Source: a virus. From it: 64,000 nt of DNA. This document shows positions 18,331-43,300 of this stretch, piece by piece. Position numbers and translations under genes: made by a program. The notes under the pieces are model-generated. The model was not told the origin of the DNA and searched no databases. It was given only the letters and a program-made list of their open reading frames with translations. The stretch spans positions 89,185 through 153,184 of IMG/VR virus record IMGVR_UViG_3300022723_000207; one strand, 5' to 3'. The stretch's first letter is position 1. Every line of letters begins with the position of its first letter.

Positions 18331-18359
18331 TTGACAGAACATTCCCGGATGATAAAAAT
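18331..18359 (+). promoter_or_regulatory. putative sigma70-type promoter for the ncRNA array
   Basis: perfect TTGACA at 18331; imperfect A-rich -10 at about 18353-18359. Confidence 0.5.
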
Positions 18360-19103: not shown

Positions 19104-19144
19104 CCCCATCAGACTTGCCGACAGGCCCTGGTGGGGTTATTTTT
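19104..19144 (+). terminator. putative intrinsic terminator after the ncRNA array
   Basis: CCCCATCAG/CTGGTGGGG stem with large loop, followed by TTATTTTT. Confidence 0.5.
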
Positions 19145-19154
19145 GGTAGCTTGA

Positions 19155-19231: not shown

Positions 19232-19319
19232 AAAGGGCCACGGTACCGCAAAAGTGGTACAAGGTCCGACAATCCTGAAGCCGCCCTATTAAGGGCGGCT
19301 TCAGCTGTATTTAAACATT

Positions 19320-20567: not shown

Positions 20568-21072
20568 TATGATTAATGAAGATTTTGATTATGACAATCT
20601 AGCTAAGGATAAATGGCAAGAGCTTCTTAAAGAATTAATGGATATTGATGGATTTAGCTTCGATCTTGAGAATGATTATGATGTAAGCAAGGATAGATTG
20701 ATAACTGTTCATGAAGATGAAGATTCTGAGCTAAAAGATCAAGCCCGTTGCCAAATGTTTGAGGCAGGCGGCGATTGGCAAGAACCTACTTGCTACTTCC
20801 GTTGTCAAGCGGTTAATGGACGATTCTATTGTTCTTGTACTGATCGACTGATTTCGCCGCATGATGGCGGTGGCATGTTTTGTTTGATTCCCCCGAAAGA
20901 TGGTGGTAATTATCATTTAGTTGAAACAGAGGATGGGAGGTTTGTGCCTGCGGACGCGGATGGCACCAAGGATCGTGATGAGAGAATGACTTATAATGAA
21001 AAAGATTGTTGGGAATGGTTAAAAGATATGTTGGATAACATGAGAAAAGATGCTATGGAAGAAATGAAATGA
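20557..21072 (+). CDS. acidic hypothetical protein
   Basis: N-terminal MKLDMINE motif. Confidence 0.6.
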   Translation: MKLDMINEDFDYDNLAKDKWQELLKELMDIDGFSFDLENDYDVSKDRLITVHEDEDSELKDQARCQMFEAGGDWQEPTCYFRCQAVNGRFYCSCTDRLISPHDGGGMFCLIPPKDGGNYHLVETEDGRFVPADADGTKDRDERMTYNEKDCWEWLKDMLDNMRKDAMEEMK

Positions 21073-21380
21073 ACGACAATTATCCGCGTGCCGCAGAAAA
21101 TGCACCAGAAGAAGTTAAAAGTCTAGTCGATGCTATTTTGGTTGGCGGGCTACCGGACGATCTGCCTTTATTGTATGCCATATTGGGAAGCGGTACTCCT
21201 CCCTATAAGATGAGTCGGGAGGACTCTGAATATCAGAGTGAACCTAGTGGTAATCAGATGTGCGCTAATTGTGAATATGCTTACAAAAAAGTCGTCAGAG
21301 ATCGTTATATCTGTTCTCAAATTCGTGGGCCTATTGAACTAGACGGTTGGTGTAGGCTTTGGGTTCCGCCCATTAAATAG
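21069..21380 (+). CDS. HiPIP-like iron-sulfur domain protein
   Basis: YQSEP..QMCANC...CSQIRGPI..DGWCRLW has the HiPIP four-Cys spacing. Confidence 0.7.
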   Translation: MNDNYPRAAENAPEEVKSLVDAILVGGLPDDLPLLYAILGSGTPPYKMSREDSEYQSEPSGNQMCANCEYAYKKVVRDRYICSQIRGPIELDGWCRLWVPPIK

Positions 21381-21387
21381 GAATACA

Positions 21388-21798
21388 ATGAAGTTTAGAA
21401 CCGTTTATGGCATCCTTCCAGTTTTAATCTTTTATCCTGATATAAAAGATGCTCATTGGACCGCCAAGCAAAATGGACCGTTTATTAGAATTCGTGAGTT
21501 TAAGGGTGATGAAGGTGTGGCCAGACATGAAATGACGACTTTTATAGATTCAACAGAAGATCCAGACGATCCTTATGTAGACGAAAGTGGCTACAACGAA
21601 TGGATTGATCGTCTTGGGGTTGAACCAATTGCCAGTACAGCGAGTGGCGATGCGGACGGTTACGAAGTTTATGTTAGAGTACTAGAGCCATTGCCACCAG
21701 AAGCCGAGGTATATAGATCTAGTGTTATAGATGGAATTGGTGTGGATAAAGATAGCCACTTTGATATGATGATGGATGAGTTTGGTGAATGGCCGTGA
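21388..21798 (+). CDS. hypothetical protein
   Basis: 136-aa ORF with AGGA SD. Confidence 0.5.
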   Translation: MKFRTVYGILPVLIFYPDIKDAHWTAKQNGPFIRIREFKGDEGVARHEMTTFIDSTEDPDDPYVDESGYNEWIDRLGVEPIASTASGDADGYEVYVRVLEPLPPEAEVYRSSVIDGIGVDKDSHFDMMMDEFGEWP

Positions 21799-21837
21799 TA
21801 GATAATTTACGATTCTTTGCGGACTGTTAGAAATGAC

Positions 21838-21866
21838 TTGACAATTCGGAACGATTCCGATAAAAT
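21838..21866 (+). promoter_or_regulatory. sigma70 promoter
   Basis: TTGACA-17bp-TAAAAT. Confidence 0.85.
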
Positions 21867-21877
21867 ATAGGGCAGAC

Positions 21878-22000
21878 ATGAACTCACACCCATTACTTAT
21901 GGAAGCCACGATGGCGACAGCAGAACAAGCAGTCGAGCGATTCGACGTGTTTGGATGGGACTGCGGTATTAAGACCGATCCAGACCCAGGTGGCACCTAA
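21878..22000 (+). CDS. putative attenuator leader peptide, 40 aa (MNSHPLLMEATMATAEQAVERFDVFGWDCGIKTDPDPGGT)
   Basis: starts just after the promoter; 3' end overlaps the antiterminator arm; D/E/G codons match downstream tRNAs. Confidence 0.65.
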   Translation: MNSHPLLMEATMATAEQAVERFDVFGWDCGIKTDPDPGGT

Positions 22001-22026
22001 GAGTTCAGTATAATCAAGAACCTCTT

Positions 22027-22068
22027 AAGAGCCCCTGGGAACTAAAAAGCCCAGGGGCTCTTGCTTTT
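22027..22068 (+). terminator. attenuator terminator hairpin
   Basis: AAGAGCCCCTGGG/CCCAGGGGCTCTT 13-bp stem then GCTTTT; competing pairing 21985-22006 with 22018-22039. Confidence 0.7.
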
Positions 22069-22107
22069 GGTACCCTTTGACAATTTTATAGATGTGGATT
22101 AACACTT

Positions 22108-22185
22108 GGCCCTTTAGCTCAGACGGTCTAGAGCACTTGCTTGTCACGCAAGAGGTCGCGGGTTCGATCCCCGCAAGGGTCGCCA
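22108..22185 (+). tRNA. tRNA-Asp(GTC)
   Basis: cloverleaf, loop TTGTCAC, CCA. Confidence 0.93.
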
Positions 22186-22189
22186 AACT

Positions 22190-22217
22190 AAGTCCCCCAC
22201 TTCGGTGGGGGACTTTT
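22190..22217 (+). terminator. intrinsic terminator-like hairpin within the tRNA cluster
   Basis: AAGTCCCCCAC-TTCG-GTGGGGGACTTTT. Confidence 0.75.
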
Positions 22218-22219
22218 AT

Positions 22220-22291
22220 GCTCCCATGGTCTAGTGGTTATGACGACAGATTTTCAATCTGTAAACAGGAGTTCAATTCTCCTTGGGAGTA
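22220..22291 (+). tRNA. tRNA-Glu(TTC)
   Basis: cloverleaf, loop TTTTCAA, no encoded CCA. Confidence 0.9.
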
Positions 22292-22390
22292 CTAGAATAT
22301 GCACCGACCCTCGCTAAAGAGGGAAGTCTCCTAGGGTTCGCGGCCTATAATGGGGGCTTCGGGTGGGGTAGAACCATCTCGGTGCTCTAT

Positions 22391-22465
22391 GCAGATATGG
22401 TGATAATGGTAGCACGTCGCCTTGCCAAGGCGAGGGCGCGGGTTCGATTCCCGCTATCTGCTCCA
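22391..22465 (+). tRNA. tRNA-Gly(GCC)
   Basis: cloverleaf, loop TTGCCAA, U73, CCA. Confidence 0.93.
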
Positions 22466-22526
22466 GTTTGTCGTAGTGAGCCCACTGTAGAAGGCCCTGG
22501 GTTCAAGTCCCAGTACCCACACCACC

Positions 22527-22643
22527 TTAGGGGTAGATGCGATTGGTGAGCATTTCGTTATGGCGTCCTGCGGTAGCGCTGCCATAGGGACACGGGCTTG
22601 CCCGTACTAGCGAATGAAGCAGGTTCGATTCCTGCACCCCTAA
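22527..22643 (+). ncRNA. tRNA-like RNA with anticodon loop replaced by a structured insert
   Basis: TTAGGGGT/ACCCCTAA acceptor, ATGC/GCAT D arm, GCAGGTTCGATTCCTGC T arm. Confidence 0.65.
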
Positions 22644-23046
22644 CAATTAACCCAGCTGAGGTTCGACCTTTCACAGGAGGGATGGGCTGTGACCCAGCTG
22701 GGTTCCTTCTTCCTTATGCTCGTGAAACGGGCGCTGGCAGAACCCCCAGTATCGTGGCAGGCGATTGAGTGTTATTAATTAGTGGATTGTTATTGTTACA
22801 AACAGGCATGAATGGTGTGCATTATATCGATGGTTATAAAATATATATTGAAGATGGTATGTTGTATGTCAATAGTGTTAAAGATAAAAGATTTAAGACT
22901 CCTGCCGGTGTTGTCTTTGCCACTGGCAGTGTTTTTAGATCTTATAGGAAACACTTTTATCATGAATATGGAAGAGCTTATGTTGGTGATAAGATTGTGA
23001 GTGAAGAAGTATCTAAGGAGGTTATTTGTAAGATCAAAGATATGTT

Positions 23047-23922
23047 ATGATTGATTTAATTAGCAAGCTGTTGATATCAGAGTCAAGAAAGCTTTCTGAA
23101 GCATTTTCTGCTCAGAATAAAAGAGCATATCAACGTGAATATGACAGAATTAAAGACCAATTAATAAGTTATGATTTAAATCCTGATGATTTTGTAAAAA
23201 ATGATGCCAGAGTTACTACTGGTGAAATGAGAAAAATTAAAAATGCTATTCAAAAGGTACAACAGGAGAAAGAGTTACAGGCTAGAAAAAGCGCTGAAAC
23301 TCAAGATATCCAAGATCAAATTGATGATCTTTATGACCAGTTAGAAGCTGCTGGCAAGCAAGACATTGCTGACGAGCTTCTTCAACAATCTACAGGGAAA
23401 GAAGATCCTAATAGTTGGTTGTTAGATCAATATAAGTCTGTACTAGACCCAGAGCATGGTTGGGAGCAAAGAGGTAAAGATTTAGAAGCTGAGATGCCAA
23501 GAGACATGCCTGATGTGGACAAAAGAGGTCATGACATAGCTGACTTTGATGTGGACGAATTACCTGCTGATGTAGAAGATGATTCTAACATCAGAAGATT
23601 CAAGCATATGACTTTGAAAATAATGAATTTATTGGATATTTCAAGAGTAGAAATGGCATCATTAATGAACCATTTGAACATAGATAGCCACATTATAAGT
23701 AATATATTTCCCACTGTTAGACAGAGCAAAATCCAAAATGTGGCCCATGCTAGGGCTGCCAAAAAGATACAGAATGCAGACCCAGAGGTAAAAGCTGCAT
23801 TGAAAAATTCACTAAGCGCAATAATGCAGCATGGAACTTATAAACTTGGAGAAGACATAGTTATTATGTCTGAGTCTGGTGTCAGTCTAATACCAGCTGG
23901 GACTAAGATCTTAATTGTGTGA
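23047..23922 (+). CDS. hypothetical protein, possible internal head protein
   Basis: 291 aa; LISE/LSE motifs near the N-terminus. Confidence 0.6.
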   Translation: MIDLISKLLISESRKLSEAFSAQNKRAYQREYDRIKDQLISYDLNPDDFVKNDARVTTGEMRKIKNAIQKVQQEKELQARKSAETQDIQDQIDDLYDQLEAAGKQDIADELLQQSTGKEDPNSWLLDQYKSVLDPEHGWEQRGKDLEAEMPRDMPDVDKRGHDIADFDVDELPADVEDDSNIRRFKHMTLKIMNLLDISRVEMASLMNHLNIDSHIISNIFPTVRQSKIQNVAHARAAKKIQNADPEVKAALKNSLSAIMQHGTYKLGEDIVIMSESGVSLIPAGTKILIV

Positions 23923-32008: not shown

Positions 32009-32299
32009 GCGCTCTTAGCTCAATGGTAGAGCATCTGACTTTCAAAGGAAGCCCTGCATGGAAACATGTAGGTGAAAATCGGGTGAATTCAGGGAACCCT
32101 CAGCGCGTAATGGCGGTGGCAATCCTGAGCCAAGCCTCATAGAGGAAGGTGCAGAGACTAGGTGATTACACCACTAGCGCCCGACACCCTAACGTAAAGA
32201 CGAGGGTGATGAGATAGTCCAGACCACAAACCGTAAGGGTAGTGAAAACTATAGTGGTAAGTAATCAGAGGGTTGAAGGTTCGAGTCCTTCAGGGCGCA
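32009..32299 (+). tRNA. tRNA-Lys(TTT) interrupted by a group I intron
   Basis: exon 1 32009-32042 plus exon 2 32262-32299 rebuild a cloverleaf with loop CTTT|TAA. Confidence 0.88.
32043..32261 (+). ncRNA. group I self-splicing intron (219 nt), insertion site 35/36
   Basis: P AATTCAGGGAA, Q AATCCTGAGC, R GTGCAGAGACT, S GAGATAGTCC; U.G pair in P1; terminal G. Confidence 0.92.
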
Positions 32300-32343
32300 C
32301 TTTAAACTCTTTCCCCATGAATTAATCTAAGCAAAATTAATTC

Positions 32344-37052: not shown

Positions 37053-37487
37053 ATGAAATTGAGCAGGCTTAATGAAGGATGGCAAGATGATTATGACCCA
37101 GAGGCTTGGAAAGGTGGTTATGATCCAGAAGGTGGTGAAGGTGATGATAGTGGTGACAGCAGTAGAATTTGGGACCTTTTAAAAGATGTTATAGGTGATA
37201 CCAATATAGATCCTGAATATTATCTGATTAGAACTGGAGATAATGAATGGATAACCACTCCATTTAATTCTGAAATATGGGTGATGAGAAAACCAAGAGA
37301 TAACGAAATAGCTAAATTTAATTTATCTTCATTTTTAAATTCAGAAATCAAAATGTCTCCGATATCGCTTGTTATAGATCCAGATCCAGATGTGTGGGAT
37401 GTGGAGTGGGTTGATGGATGGAAAATTAATAAAAATATATTATTAGGCATGGAGATTGCTGACCCTGGTTTATTAGGCGGCGGTTGA
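37053..37487 (+). CDS. acidic hypothetical protein
   Basis: AAATATA-N4-ATG; MKLSRLNE. Confidence 0.6.
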   Translation: MKLSRLNEGWQDDYDPEAWKGGYDPEGGEGDDSGDSSRIWDLLKDVIGDTNIDPEYYLIRTGDNEWITTPFNSEIWVMRKPRDNEIAKFNLSSFLNSEIKMSPISLVIDPDPDVWDVEWVDGWKINKNILLGMEIADPGLLGGG

Positions 37488-37549
37488 TAAAATATACCTT
37501 ACGTTGCCCATAACGGGCTTCTCTTTGACAATCGAAAGGAGGAGGAACC

Positions 37550-37846
37550 ATGAGTACCATGGAACGTAAGTCGCCACGTATAGGTGATACTGTCATTTAC
37601 CATGACAAGCACGGGAAAGCGCACAATGCGTTAGTGAAGATTTCCTGGGATCAGGGTGGTCAGATCGAAGACCCTTGCGTTAATTTGGTATATGTCAGTG
37701 ATGACGCAAAAAGGGAAGATGGCGCAGGCCGTCAGACCATTGTAGAAACTAGCATAGTTCATGGATCAAACCAGACTGCGCACGGTTTTTACTGGAGAAG
37801 GGTTGATGAAGATCCTAATCCATACGTTAAGCCTAGTGACGACTAA
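37550..37846 (+). CDS. hypothetical protein
   Basis: strong SD AGGAGGAGG. Confidence 0.7.
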   Translation: MSTMERKSPRIGDTVIYHDKHGKAHNALVKISWDQGGQIEDPCVNLVYVSDDAKREDGAGRQTIVETSIVHGSNQTAHGFYWRRVDEDPNPYVKPSDD

Positions 37847-37921
37847 TTAATTGACGGACGACGGATGGAACCTACAAAGGGAACCTACCCAGAGTTTATC
37901 AAATGTAGTTTAGAGGACGCC

Positions 37922-38302
37922 ATGCCATTAGATAACGAAGAATTTGATAATGCTTTGAATGGTATAAGTAATAGAAGCAGCAATAATGAAAAAATATTTG
38001 TTTTAACATGGCAAGAGTTGGGTGGAACAAATGCTGCTACTATTTCGGCAGATCCTGATGATCCAGATTCTGTTATCATAGCAAAGGCTACTAAAGATTT
38101 CGGGTATACTCCAGCCCCCGATGAATTTGAATATGAAATCATTGACAGTAATCATGACTCTGATACAAAACGTGGATATGCGATAACACAAGATTCTCGT
38201 GGTCACAAGTCAATTGATATTTGGCGATCACTAGACGATGAAGAGCCAAATTGGCCGCATAATACGTTGAAACGTTTCCTTAGAAGGAAGATGTTTAACT
38301 AG
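37922..38302 (+). CDS. hypothetical protein (MPLDNEEFDNALN...)
   Basis: GAGGA SD before ATG 37922; N-terminus shared with 38483. Confidence 0.6.
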   Translation: MPLDNEEFDNALNGISNRSSNNEKIFVLTWQELGGTNAATISADPDDPDSVIIAKATKDFGYTPAPDEFEYEIIDSNHDSDTKRGYAITQDSRGHKSIDIWRSLDDEEPNWPHNTLKRFLRRKMFN

Positions 38303-38359
38303 TTCTTTGACAATATGGGGGCGACATGGCTTCGACAGGCTGTGGAACCTAGTGTGAGC
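38301..38359 (+). repeat. 59-bp exact copy of the tmRNA leader and 5' end (38902-38960)
   Basis: direct sequence identity. Confidence 0.95.
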
Positions 38360-38482
38360 GATGGATACGTTAAGCCTAGTGACGACTAATTAATTGACGG
38401 ACGACGGATGGAACCTACAAAGGGAACCTACCCAGAATCAAATGTAGTTTAGAGGACGCCATGCAAGAGTTGGGAGATAAAA

Positions 38483-38854: not shown

Positions 38855-38917
38855 AAGATGGATGGAAATTAATAAAAATAATTAGGCAATTCTAAGGAAA
38901 CAGTTCTTTGACAATAT

Positions 38918-39264
38918 GGGGGCGACATGGCTTCGACAGGCTGTGGAACCTAGTGTGAGCCTTGAGATGGTGCGGGAGGCCATCTAAAAACCCGCAAAAG
39001 AATAAATGCCGACGATCACGTCAGCTATGCTCCTGTCGCTGTAGCGGCTTGAGCGACGGTTCGTGGACTCCGTTAAAGCAAACCGAACAGCAACGGATGC
39101 TTCTTTAGTGTAATCGTCAGCTAAAGATTAAGATTGAACGATCGTGGTGTTAACGCCTTCGTAATGGTGTTAATAGGTTGCTGGTGTCCGAATACGCCAG
39201 ATATTCAAGGTAGAGCGCACAGGCGCAAGCAGTTTGGACGCGGGTTCGAACCCCGCCGCCTCCA
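38918..39264 (+). ncRNA. ssrA: tmRNA; tag ADDHVSYAPVAVAA at 39008-39052
   Basis: 5' GGGGGCGAC..TTCGAC; 3' GGACGCGGGTTCGAACCCCGCCGCCTCCA with G3:U70; tag ends in AA. Confidence 0.95.
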
Positions 39265-42569: not shown

Positions 42570-43124
42570 ATGCTTTTTAGAGTTGATGGAAATATCACAA
42601 TTAGAGCAGATCGATATTGTTTTATGGTGTGTCAAGATAAAGGCATGACTAAATTTCCTAAGGGTATTATGGCTCCTTATCACAAGCCATTAAAATTTTG
42701 TGGCTATTTTCATGAAATGGTTCGATCAATTGAAGCGGAAGCTGCTAAGGTAAGCGATGAGATCTCTAATATCATGCGTGAAGAGTTTCAAATGCGCAGT
42801 TCTCTTAATGCATTTGATGGGTCTTTTGATAAATATTCAATAGTTGGAACTGATATCAGATTTGATAAAGATTGCTATATTAATAAATTCGCTTCGTATA
42901 CGACTTATAATAGGTCTCCTGGCCATTCTCTTTTCAGTGCATGGACTCAACATTTGCGGGAGCATCCGCGTTTTGGATCGGCTGAAAAAGACTACAATTT
43001 ATGTGAGCCTTCAGAAATTGCTAAGGCTATGCAGGAGTTCAAGGAACAAGTTGCTAAAGATCACGGTGTTGATTTTTCTACTGAAGTTAAAATTCCAAAA
43101 CACCTCTGCTTAGAAGAATCTTGA
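42570..43124 (+). CDS. hypothetical protein
   Basis: AGGAG SD. Confidence 0.6.
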   Translation: MLFRVDGNITIRADRYCFMVCQDKGMTKFPKGIMAPYHKPLKFCGYFHEMVRSIEAEAAKVSDEISNIMREEFQMRSSLNAFDGSFDKYSIVGTDIRFDKDCYINKFASYTTYNRSPGHSLFSAWTQHLREHPRFGSAEKDYNLCEPSEIAKAMQEFKEQVAKDHGVDFSTEVKIPKHLCLEES

Positions 43125-43148
43125 CAGCGGATTCTTGGATGTTATAGT
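43121..43148 (+). promoter_or_regulatory. sigma70 promoter (extended -10)
   Basis: TTGACA-16bp-TATAGT with TG at -15/-14. Confidence 0.75.
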
Positions 43149-43156
43149 ATTATCCG

Positions 43157-43207
43157 ATGAACACTTTCCAACAACACCAGCACCAGACAGGAACCAAGAG
43201 CGCTTAG
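43157..43207 (+). CDS. attenuator leader peptide MNTFQQHQHQTGTKSA
   Basis: six consecutive Gln/His codons CAA CAA CAC CAG CAC CAG upstream of tRNA-Gln/Gln/His. Confidence 0.8.
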   Translation: MNTFQQHQHQTGTKSA

Positions 43208-43236
43208 GCTTTTTGGACGGTGTTGCGTTATCTCGT

Positions 43237-43273
43237 GAGCCCCCGAAGCCTAGGTTTCGGGGGCTCTGCTCTT
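43237..43273 (+). terminator. attenuator terminator hairpin
   Basis: GAGCCCCCGAAGC-CTAG-GTTTCGGGGGCTC then TGCTCTT. Confidence 0.7.
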
Positions 43274-43300
43274 GGTATACTCTTTGACAATCTAAATTAA

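Follow-up and report, generated by a model that had tools for sequence, protein, structure and literature searches.

A possible ribosome-dependent attenuator in front of tRNA genes of an uncultured jumbo phage

In a 153-kb virus record from IMG/VR (IMGVR_UViG_3300022723_000207), a leader of about 280 nt, here denoted unit A, is driven by a host-type promoter and precedes the genes for tRNA-Asp, tRNA-Glu, and tRNA-Gly. All coordinates given below are positions in the analyzed window, a stretch of 64,000 nt that comprises bases 89185–153184 of the record. Structure predictions and codon statistics point, with roughly even chances in our estimate, to unit A being a ribosome-dependent attenuator that gates the tRNA operon and that would sense general or repertoire-wide decoding speed, and not the decoding of Asp, Glu, and Gly codons in particular. 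A second leader, unit B (43111–43300), is located ahead of the genes for two tRNAs-Gln and one tRNA-His. Attenuators that depend on a leader open reading frame (ORF) are of a known kind, and for the candidate described here it is the target, phage tRNA genes, that we have not found published; searches of the literature likewise turned up no report of tRNA genes being controlled by a leader peptide.

Promoter, leader, and alternative pairings of unit A

The promoter of unit A (21828–21866, plus strand) consists of an upstream TAGAA element, a −35 box TTGACA (21838–43), a 17-nt spacer, and a −10 box TAAAAT (21861–66). It matches the sigma70-type promoter in 11 of 12 positions, which is the best match between 17 and 30 kb, and transcription is predicted to start at about 21872–21874, that is, about 5 nt ahead of the AUG of the leader ORF. 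Across the 153 kb, there are just six sites of the form TTGACA-N16-18-TANNNT, and the pattern TAGAA-N3-6-TTGACA occurs only three times (18322, 21828, and 43111, with an observed spacing of N4-5). The three promoters with this upstream element (TTGACA at 18331, 21838, and 43121) are all on the plus strand, and each is located ahead of a tRNA cluster. Because the pattern is restricted to three sites that precede tRNA clusters, the shared TAGAA element points to a promoter family devoted to these clusters.

The leader ORF (MNSHPLLMEATMATAEQAVERFDVFGWDCGIKTDPDPGGT; 21878–22000, plus strand) has 40 codons, a 5' untranslated region (UTR) of about 4–6 nt, and no Shine-Dalgarno motif, and folding predicts a single-stranded 5' end for the nascent transcript. 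It is followed by a GC-rich terminator-like hairpin (22026–22063) with a stem of 13–14 bp, a 10-nt loop, and a predicted stability of −25.9 to −27.6 kcal/mol (−27.6 when folded alone); together with the tail TGCTTTTGGTA, this plus-strand element extends to 22072. A boxA-like motif (ACCCTTTGACAAT, 22072–22084, plus strand), which includes CTTTGACAAT at 22075–22084, separates the hairpin from the tRNA genes. A previous sequence-only reading of this DNA had described the TTGACA-17-TAAAAT promoter, a 40-codon ORF with four Asp, four Gly, and three Glu codons (Asp and Gly confined to the last 18 codons), and the genes for tRNA-Asp(GTC), tRNA-Glu(TTC), and tRNA-Gly(GCC), all of which are indeed present. 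It had also described a 13-bp terminator with a short U-tract, of which the stem was recovered (13–14 bp), while the U-tract is weak and the terminator score is borderline.

Three regions of the leader can form mutually exclusive pairings. Region 2 (21985–22009, plus strand, like the other two) comprises the last five codons, the stop codon TAA at 21998–22000, and 9 nt beyond, and can pair with either region 1 or region 3. Region 1 consists of three pieces (21876–85, including the AUG; 21905–09; and 21956–59) and pairs with region 2 in short as well as in full-length transcripts, whereas region 3 (22018–22039) is the antiterminator partner of region 2 and holds the 5' arm of the terminator-like hairpin (22026–22039). 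The antiterminator helix between 21985–22006 and 22018–22039 contains 19 bp, has a predicted stability of −24.7 kcal/mol when the segment 21983–22041 is folded alone (compared with −27.6 kcal/mol for the 3:4 pairing of the terminator), and takes up 11 of the 13 nt of the terminator 5' arm. The duplex that the 56 nt upstream form with the 5' arm reaches −18.2 kcal/mol, a value matched by only 0.2% of genomic and 0.33% of GC-matched windows. When the same competitor test was applied to six other strong hairpins of the window, it returned 0.26–0.91, nothing comparable to unit A. The folding of the whole leader has a z-score of −5.8 relative to shuffled sequences.

Folding of the transcript at successive lengths predicts that the partners are exchanged as the RNA grows. 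Up to about position 22032, region 2 is held by the three upstream partners within the ORF; for transcripts that end at 22038–22050, the 2:3 antiterminator has the lowest energy; and from 22056 onward, the 1:2 pairing together with the terminator does. Thus, the predicted folds of unit A display the exclusive 1:2, 2:3, and 3:4 pairings by which classical attenuators are recognized.

In a masking test, the footprint of a ribosome was hidden for one A-site codon after another, and the transcript was folded at a stage at which the 3' arm has yet to emerge. The paired fraction of the 5' arm was 0.82 for A-site codons 1–32, decreased to 0.70 at codon 33 and 0.60 at codon 34, and fell to 0.37–0.48 from codon 35 through the stop codon. 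The stop codon is part of region 2, with 66 nt between it and the hairpin end; a ribosome terminating there would mask this region. Because the stop codon is in region 2 and masking lowers the pairing of the 5' arm, a ribosome that completes the ORF would favor termination, whereas an earlier hold-up would favor read-through. Two earlier proposals are strengthened by these calculations: the near-complementarity of 21985–22006 and 22018–22039 exists and is beyond chance, and the geometry of a switch in which a ribosome at the stop codon masks the antiterminator, and earlier stalling leads to read-through, is supported in silico. For the untranslated leader, the modeled default is ambiguous, since the 1:2 pairing would form first kinetically, favoring termination, whereas the 2:3 pairing would win thermodynamically as long as the 3' arm is inside the polymerase.

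The following course of events can be envisaged, with the steps from the start to read-through based on structure prediction and known ribosome footprints. After RNA polymerase has started about 5 nt ahead of the AUG, a ribosome would load on the nascent, unstructured 5' end. On reaching codons 34–40 or the stop codon, the ribosome would cover region 2 (21985–22009), and the freed 5' arm would enter the 22026–22063 hairpin, so that transcription would stop near 22064–22072. A ribosome held in codons 1–32 would break the three region-1 contacts and leave region 2 free to pair with 22018–22039, which would block the terminator and allow the polymerase to continue. The polymerase would then pass the boxA-like site, where Nus factors would probably be recruited, and transcribe tRNA-Asp, tRNA-Glu, tRNA-Gly, and the tRNA-like elements that follow. 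The expression of tRNA genes is usually thought to be controlled at initiation, by growth rate and the stringent response, and by processing. If a leader-ORF attenuator before tRNA genes is confirmed, decoding speed itself would set the supply of tRNA.

Codon content of the leader ORF and comparison with unit B

The composition of the leader ORF is unusually broad: codons 1–32, the zone in which stalling would be productive for read-through, contain 19 of the 20 amino acids, a diversity found in 0.37% of proteome windows. Codons 11–34 (21908–21979, plus strand) constitute a candidate sensor segment of 24 consecutive codons that are decodable by tRNAs encoded in the window. With strict wobble rules, the run comprises 21 codons, and it extends to 24 after addition of an intron-split tRNA-Lys(UUU) and an Arg(CCG) called by Rfam. 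In dinucleotide shuffles of the ORF, runs of 21 or 24 were reached in 4.5e-4 and 2e-4 of the trials, respectively, and none of 7128 GC-matched windows reached the strict run. In the remaining five frames of the leader, the longest decodable runs have only 5–9 codons, and just two to three comparable runs exist across the six frames of the 153 kb. At the level of amino acids, codons 8–31 specify only residues with a window-encoded tRNA and cover all 12 identities of the tRNAs from unit A to unit B; among the 24-residue windows in the six frames of the contig, this segment is unique in combining both properties. The decodable run stops at about the place where stalling ceases to be productive (codons 32–35, depending on the tRNA set).

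It is possible, and we propose it tentatively, that unit A acts as a codon-inventory sensor, with a productive zone written in phage-tRNA codons and a tRNA operon that is opened when decoding is too slow. The sensed quantity would be the overall decoding speed over the 24 consecutive codons served by phage tRNAs. Slow decoding could stem from a poor tRNA pool of the host or from host anticodon nucleases, and the operon would close again as phage tRNAs accumulate, because a higher level of phage tRNA would accelerate translation of the leader and increase termination. The match between the codons and the tRNA set was measured, and from it we infer the feedback role. If this sensor and unit B are confirmed, they would represent direct product feedback on the transcription of tRNA genes, which we have not found published for any tRNA gene. 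For phages, a leader-ORF attenuator before tRNA genes would explain how large tRNA sets are expressed only when needed, and would tie tRNA carriage to mismatches in codon usage and to tRNA-cleaving host defences.

Unit B shares with unit A the promoter family, the ATGAAC start, and a cassette (43237–43291) composed of a hairpin, TGCTYTTGGTA, and CTTTGACAAT, the recurrence of which agrees with the earlier statement that the unit A cassette mirrors the unit at 43.1 kb. The ORF of unit B has 16 codons and includes QQHQHQ, the sole Gln/His run of at least six residues in the six frames of the 153 kb, and it directly precedes the genes for tRNA-Gln(CTG), tRNA-Gln(TTG), and tRNA-His(GTG). In the masking test, all six Gln/His codons are within the productive zone of unit B. 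Its AUG is exactly 7 nt past the −10 box, so that the transcript is predicted to be leaderless. In both units the stop codon is in region 2, at a distance from the hairpin end of 63 nt in unit B versus 66 nt in unit A. With its six tandem control codons in a short ORF, unit B differs from unit A, in which the cognate-codon evidence is weak; since, conversely, the structural evidence is strong in unit A and the antiterminator pairing of unit B does not exceed chance, the two units support each other from opposite sides. Among 14 tRNA clusters tested, the architecture is present in two, units A and B only. A single long transcript from unit A to unit B was considered and rejected because there are minus-strand ORFs in between.

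Alternative explanations and points against an attenuator

The sequence-only reading had interpreted unit A as a trp/his-type attenuator with Asp, Glu, and Gly control codons matched to the three tRNAs immediately downstream. The leader ORF does contain Asp codons at positions 23, 28, 34, and 36, Gly codons at 26, 30, 38, and 39, and Glu codons at 9, 16, and 20, and 10 of these are cognate to the anticodons GTC, TTC, or GCC; moreover, the eight Asp and Gly codons within the last 18 codons are equalled by only 0.8% of proteome windows, in a test that was picked post hoc, and unit B is precisely codon-matched. However, neither the three residues (11 of 40, compared with a proteome background of 0.216; P = 0.23) nor the codons that these tRNAs would read by their anticodons (P = 0.25) are enriched above chance, tandem control codons are absent, and in the productive zone the cognate codons (6 of 32, 19%) are at background level. 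In addition, G26 is encoded by GGA, which is not read by the anticodon GCC. Half of the Asp and Gly codons (D34, D36, G38, and G39) belong to the antiterminator strand, in the masking zone, and therefore a stall there would favor termination; the Asp/Gly-rich tail is better explained as the peptide that results when the GC-rich pairing sequence GAC-CCA-GGT-GGC is translated. The link to Asp, Glu, and Gly was thus not borne out, the leader codons track the whole tRNA set, and a sensor of these three amino acids appears highly improbable. Alternatively, unit A might be an independent early unit with a strong promoter, a structured small RNA of about 190 nt or a gene for a 40-aa peptide, and a leaky terminator. 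In this case, there would be no regulated switch, and the tRNAs would be produced by constitutive read-through or from upstream transcripts. A 5' UTR that is too short for a Shine-Dalgarno motif, the pronounced structure of the RNA (z = −5.8) with a terminal helix (21876–85/22001–09) that buries the AUG, the strong hairpins that end other stable RNAs nearby (at 19275, 22190, and 39270), and a peptide that is devoid of homologues and of Asp/Glu/Gly enrichment are all in line with such a unit. However, a small RNA gains nothing from a segment that competes with its own terminator, and a competitor like that of unit A is rare (0.33%) and missing at the six control hairpins. Three further features argue against an independent early unit, which we regard as rather unlikely: both units have their stop codon within region 2, the run of 24 decodable codons is specific to the reading frame (P = 2e-4), and unit B spells QQHQHQ before tRNA-Gln, tRNA-Gln, and tRNA-His.

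Another explanation assigns the central role to the boxA-like motif. In a nut-like or rrn-leader-like site (boxB-boxA order), or in an RNA-processing module, the polymerase would be rendered resistant to termination over the tRNA genes, the hairpin would be non-terminating, and the ORF would be incidental. In the window, CTTTGACAAT is present at five intergenic sites (22075, 37523, 38305, 38906, and 43282), which precede two tRNA clusters, twice a tmRNA 5' end at a distance of 2 nt, and one gene with a strong ribosome-binding site. The gammaproteobacterial boxA consensus, GYTCTTTAANA (PMC5725501), is matched in 10 of 11 positions by the tmRNA copies, in nine by unit B, and in eight by unit A, so that the earlier description of the unit A motif as boxA-like is reasonable and the likeness imperfect. 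The G at boxA position 2 is important for the contact with NusB (PMC3177189). The copies ahead of tmRNA have the critical nucleotides G2, C5, and U6, whereas units A and B have an A at position 2, and position 8 is G instead of A in every copy. A nut-like site would also be consistent with the sequence straight after the hairpin (TGCTCTT or TGCTTTT), which resembles the 5' half of boxA, with the weak U-tract and the A-rich loop of the unit A hairpin, and with the canonical terminator-like hairpin between tRNA-Asp and tRNA-Glu, which has to be read through. However, three of the five copies lack an adjoining GC-rich hairpin of the 13–14-bp kind (ahead of 37523 there is just a GCCC/GGGC stem of 4 bp), the loops of the two units are unrelated (10 nt and A-rich in unit A versus CTAG in unit B), the G2 that is important for NusB binding is missing in both units, and the antiterminator pairing, the placement of the stop codon, QQHQHQ, and the codon run would be left unexplained. 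As a replacement for an attenuator, this explanation is improbable, and the two are compatible and do not exclude each other. Within an attenuator, the putative boxA would serve to load Nus factors past the attenuator, so that the polymerase survives the untranslated tRNA genes; this role fits the hairpin between tRNA-Asp and tRNA-Glu because the polymerase must read through it. The possibility that CTTTGACAAT is a sigma70 −35 box was rejected, as a −10 box 17 nt downstream would place the start inside tRNA-Asp, tRNA-Gln, or tmRNA. A literature search for the exact motif returned unrelated papers only, and the gene behind the motif at 37523 has no match in Pfam.

Several observations weigh against an attenuator in unit A. 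No Shine-Dalgarno motif precedes its ORF, with just 4–6 nt of 5' UTR, and clear GGAGG sites are present at other phage genes; translation of the leader ORF is predicted from the sequence. The leader peptide found no homologue except itself among 1.8 billion representative proteins, and no PHROG match, which would fit a leader peptide and a non-coding RNA equally well. The approximate d'Aubenton-Carafa score of the unit A hairpin is borderline (+2.3) because the U-tract is interrupted (TTGCTTTTGG), and that of the unit B hairpin is negative. Furthermore, the unit A tail also follows the hairpins at 43237–43277 and 19114–19148, and the third of these hairpins (19114–19154, followed by TTATTTTTGGTA) is located directly before tRNA-Met at the end of a tRNA-like array, with no leader ORF. 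Since such hairpin-TTTTGGTA modules follow other stable RNAs here, the hairpin of unit A could be an ordinary 3' end. The antiterminator pairing of unit B is not above chance in the competitor test. The statistic for the codon run was selected after the peptide had been inspected, with a tRNA set that is neither final nor complete, since the contig represents an estimated 42% of the genome; the total of decodable codons, 32 of 40 compared with a background of 0.654, yields just P = 0.03. No relative was found that carries unit A and could reveal covariation or conservation. Finally, the Rfam leader family His_leader (RF00514) reaches only 17.8 bits against a threshold of 49 (E = 4.1), and with the other 4226 Rfam models, tRNAs alone score above threshold near unit A. 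A T-box riboswitch was also considered as a candidate and rejected, with no T-box match at E values up to 5 in 21700–22900.

Known systems, neighboring elements, and genome context

As a putative attenuator, unit A resembles the leaders trpL, hisL, pheL, ilvGMEDA and thr (multivalent), and pheM (pheST) in its promoter-proximal short ORF and exclusive 1:2, 2:3, and 3:4 pairings. As in classical leader-peptide attenuators, the stop codon is placed for the masking of region 2, about 65 nt before the termination point in unit A; in trpL, this distance is about 70 nt. Unlike classical attenuators, unit A would control tRNAs and not biosynthetic enzymes or a synthetase; it has no Shine-Dalgarno motif, is nearly leaderless, has a weak U-tract, and contains, instead of tandem control codons, the 24-codon run drawn from the phage tRNA repertoire. 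In the antibiotic-responsive leaders of the ABC-F or erm type (for example, msrD; PMC10314930), slowing of the ribosome likewise leads to read-through with no amino-acid specificity; however, the signal for these leaders is a drug-bound ribosome and their targets are resistance genes, whereas the output of unit A would be tRNA from a phage early promoter. The leaderless polycysteine short-ORF attenuators of mycobacteria (bioRxiv 10.1101/834739) also have a regulatory ORF at or near the 5' end of the transcript and no Shine-Dalgarno motif, but they belong to cysteine metabolism in another host group, and unit A, with its leader of 4–6 nt, is not strictly leaderless. The boxA sites of rrn operons and lambda nut, which are bound by NusB-NusE (PMC5725501, PMC3177189), share with the motif described here a U-rich CTTTRACAA-type sequence in a stable-RNA leader and, in the case of the rrn boxB-boxA order, the location downstream of a hairpin. 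They differ in that all copies here have G at position 8 and units A and B lack G2.

The genes that unit A would control (22108–22465, plus strand) comprise tRNA-Asp(GTC) at 22108–22185, tRNA-Glu(TTC) at 22220–22292, and tRNA-Gly(GCC) at 22391–22465, with a structured spacer between the latter two. The terminator-like hairpin between tRNA-Asp and tRNA-Glu (22190–22215, plus strand) has an 11-bp stem and a TTCG loop and is followed by TTTTAT; its approximate d'Aubenton-Carafa score of +24.9 is far above that of the attenuator hairpin. Two further tRNA-like elements of low confidence follow on the same strand (22466–22644). The first is a short piece in which a T-arm is repeated (22499); the second, at 22528–22644, is a tRNA scaffold of 117 nt whose anticodon region carries an insertion of about 42 nt and which the intron mode of ARAGORN calls Ala(GGC). 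If this tRNA-Ala is real, it would read GCC at codon 10, the one leader codon missed by the strict set. At 32009–32300, a group I intron (84.8 bits in Rfam) interrupts a tRNA that has the anticodon stem TCTGA/TCAGA and the loop CTTT...TAA; a direct reading of the anticodon stem-loop gives tRNA-Lys(UUU) after splicing, and the intron mode of ARAGORN miscalls it as SeC(TCA).

The window represents the 3' part of the 153-kb fragment, the completeness of which was estimated by CheckV at 42%. Genes for a T4-like sheath, a baseplate wedge, and a large terminase are present in the record, and the source is an uncultured, giant, isolated jumbo myovirus; the closest terminase among GenBank phages is 28% identical. 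The window contains 24 tRNA genes and one tmRNA gene (ARAGORN), all on the plus strand, to which Rfam adds the group I intron and two further tRNA matches. Megablast against phage records returned nothing, the genes next to unit A have no Pfam matches, and the neighboring proteins have almost no homologues. Motif scans of IMG/VR and metagenome contigs gave chance hits in coding DNA only, with no tRNA downstream. Three metagenomic relatives cover nearby DNA: one contains homologues of 22817–23844, with no tRNAs there, one is a fragment of 517 nt, and the third, a contig of 1175 nt (JGI 3300023202), is 92% identical over 20748–21536 and diverges completely from 21536. Related phages thus have a breakpoint immediately upstream of unit A.

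Other repeats lie close to the remaining copies of the boxA-like motif. An AT-rich repeat (GATGGATGGAAA..TTAATAAAAATA..ATTAGGCA) at 37413–37450 and 38870–38900 is located 30–110 nt upstream of two CTTTGACAAT copies and may be a middle or late phage promoter resembling the late TATAAATA box of T4. An exact 59-nt duplicate (38301–38359 and 38902–38960) comprises the boxA-like motif together with 45 nt from the start of the tmRNA gene and lies some 600 nt ahead of the complete tmRNA, accompanied by exact repeats of 72 nt and 28 nt nearby (37822–37925 and 38365–38464). Rearrangement, insertion of a mobile element, or faulty assembly around the tmRNA 5' end may account for this duplication.

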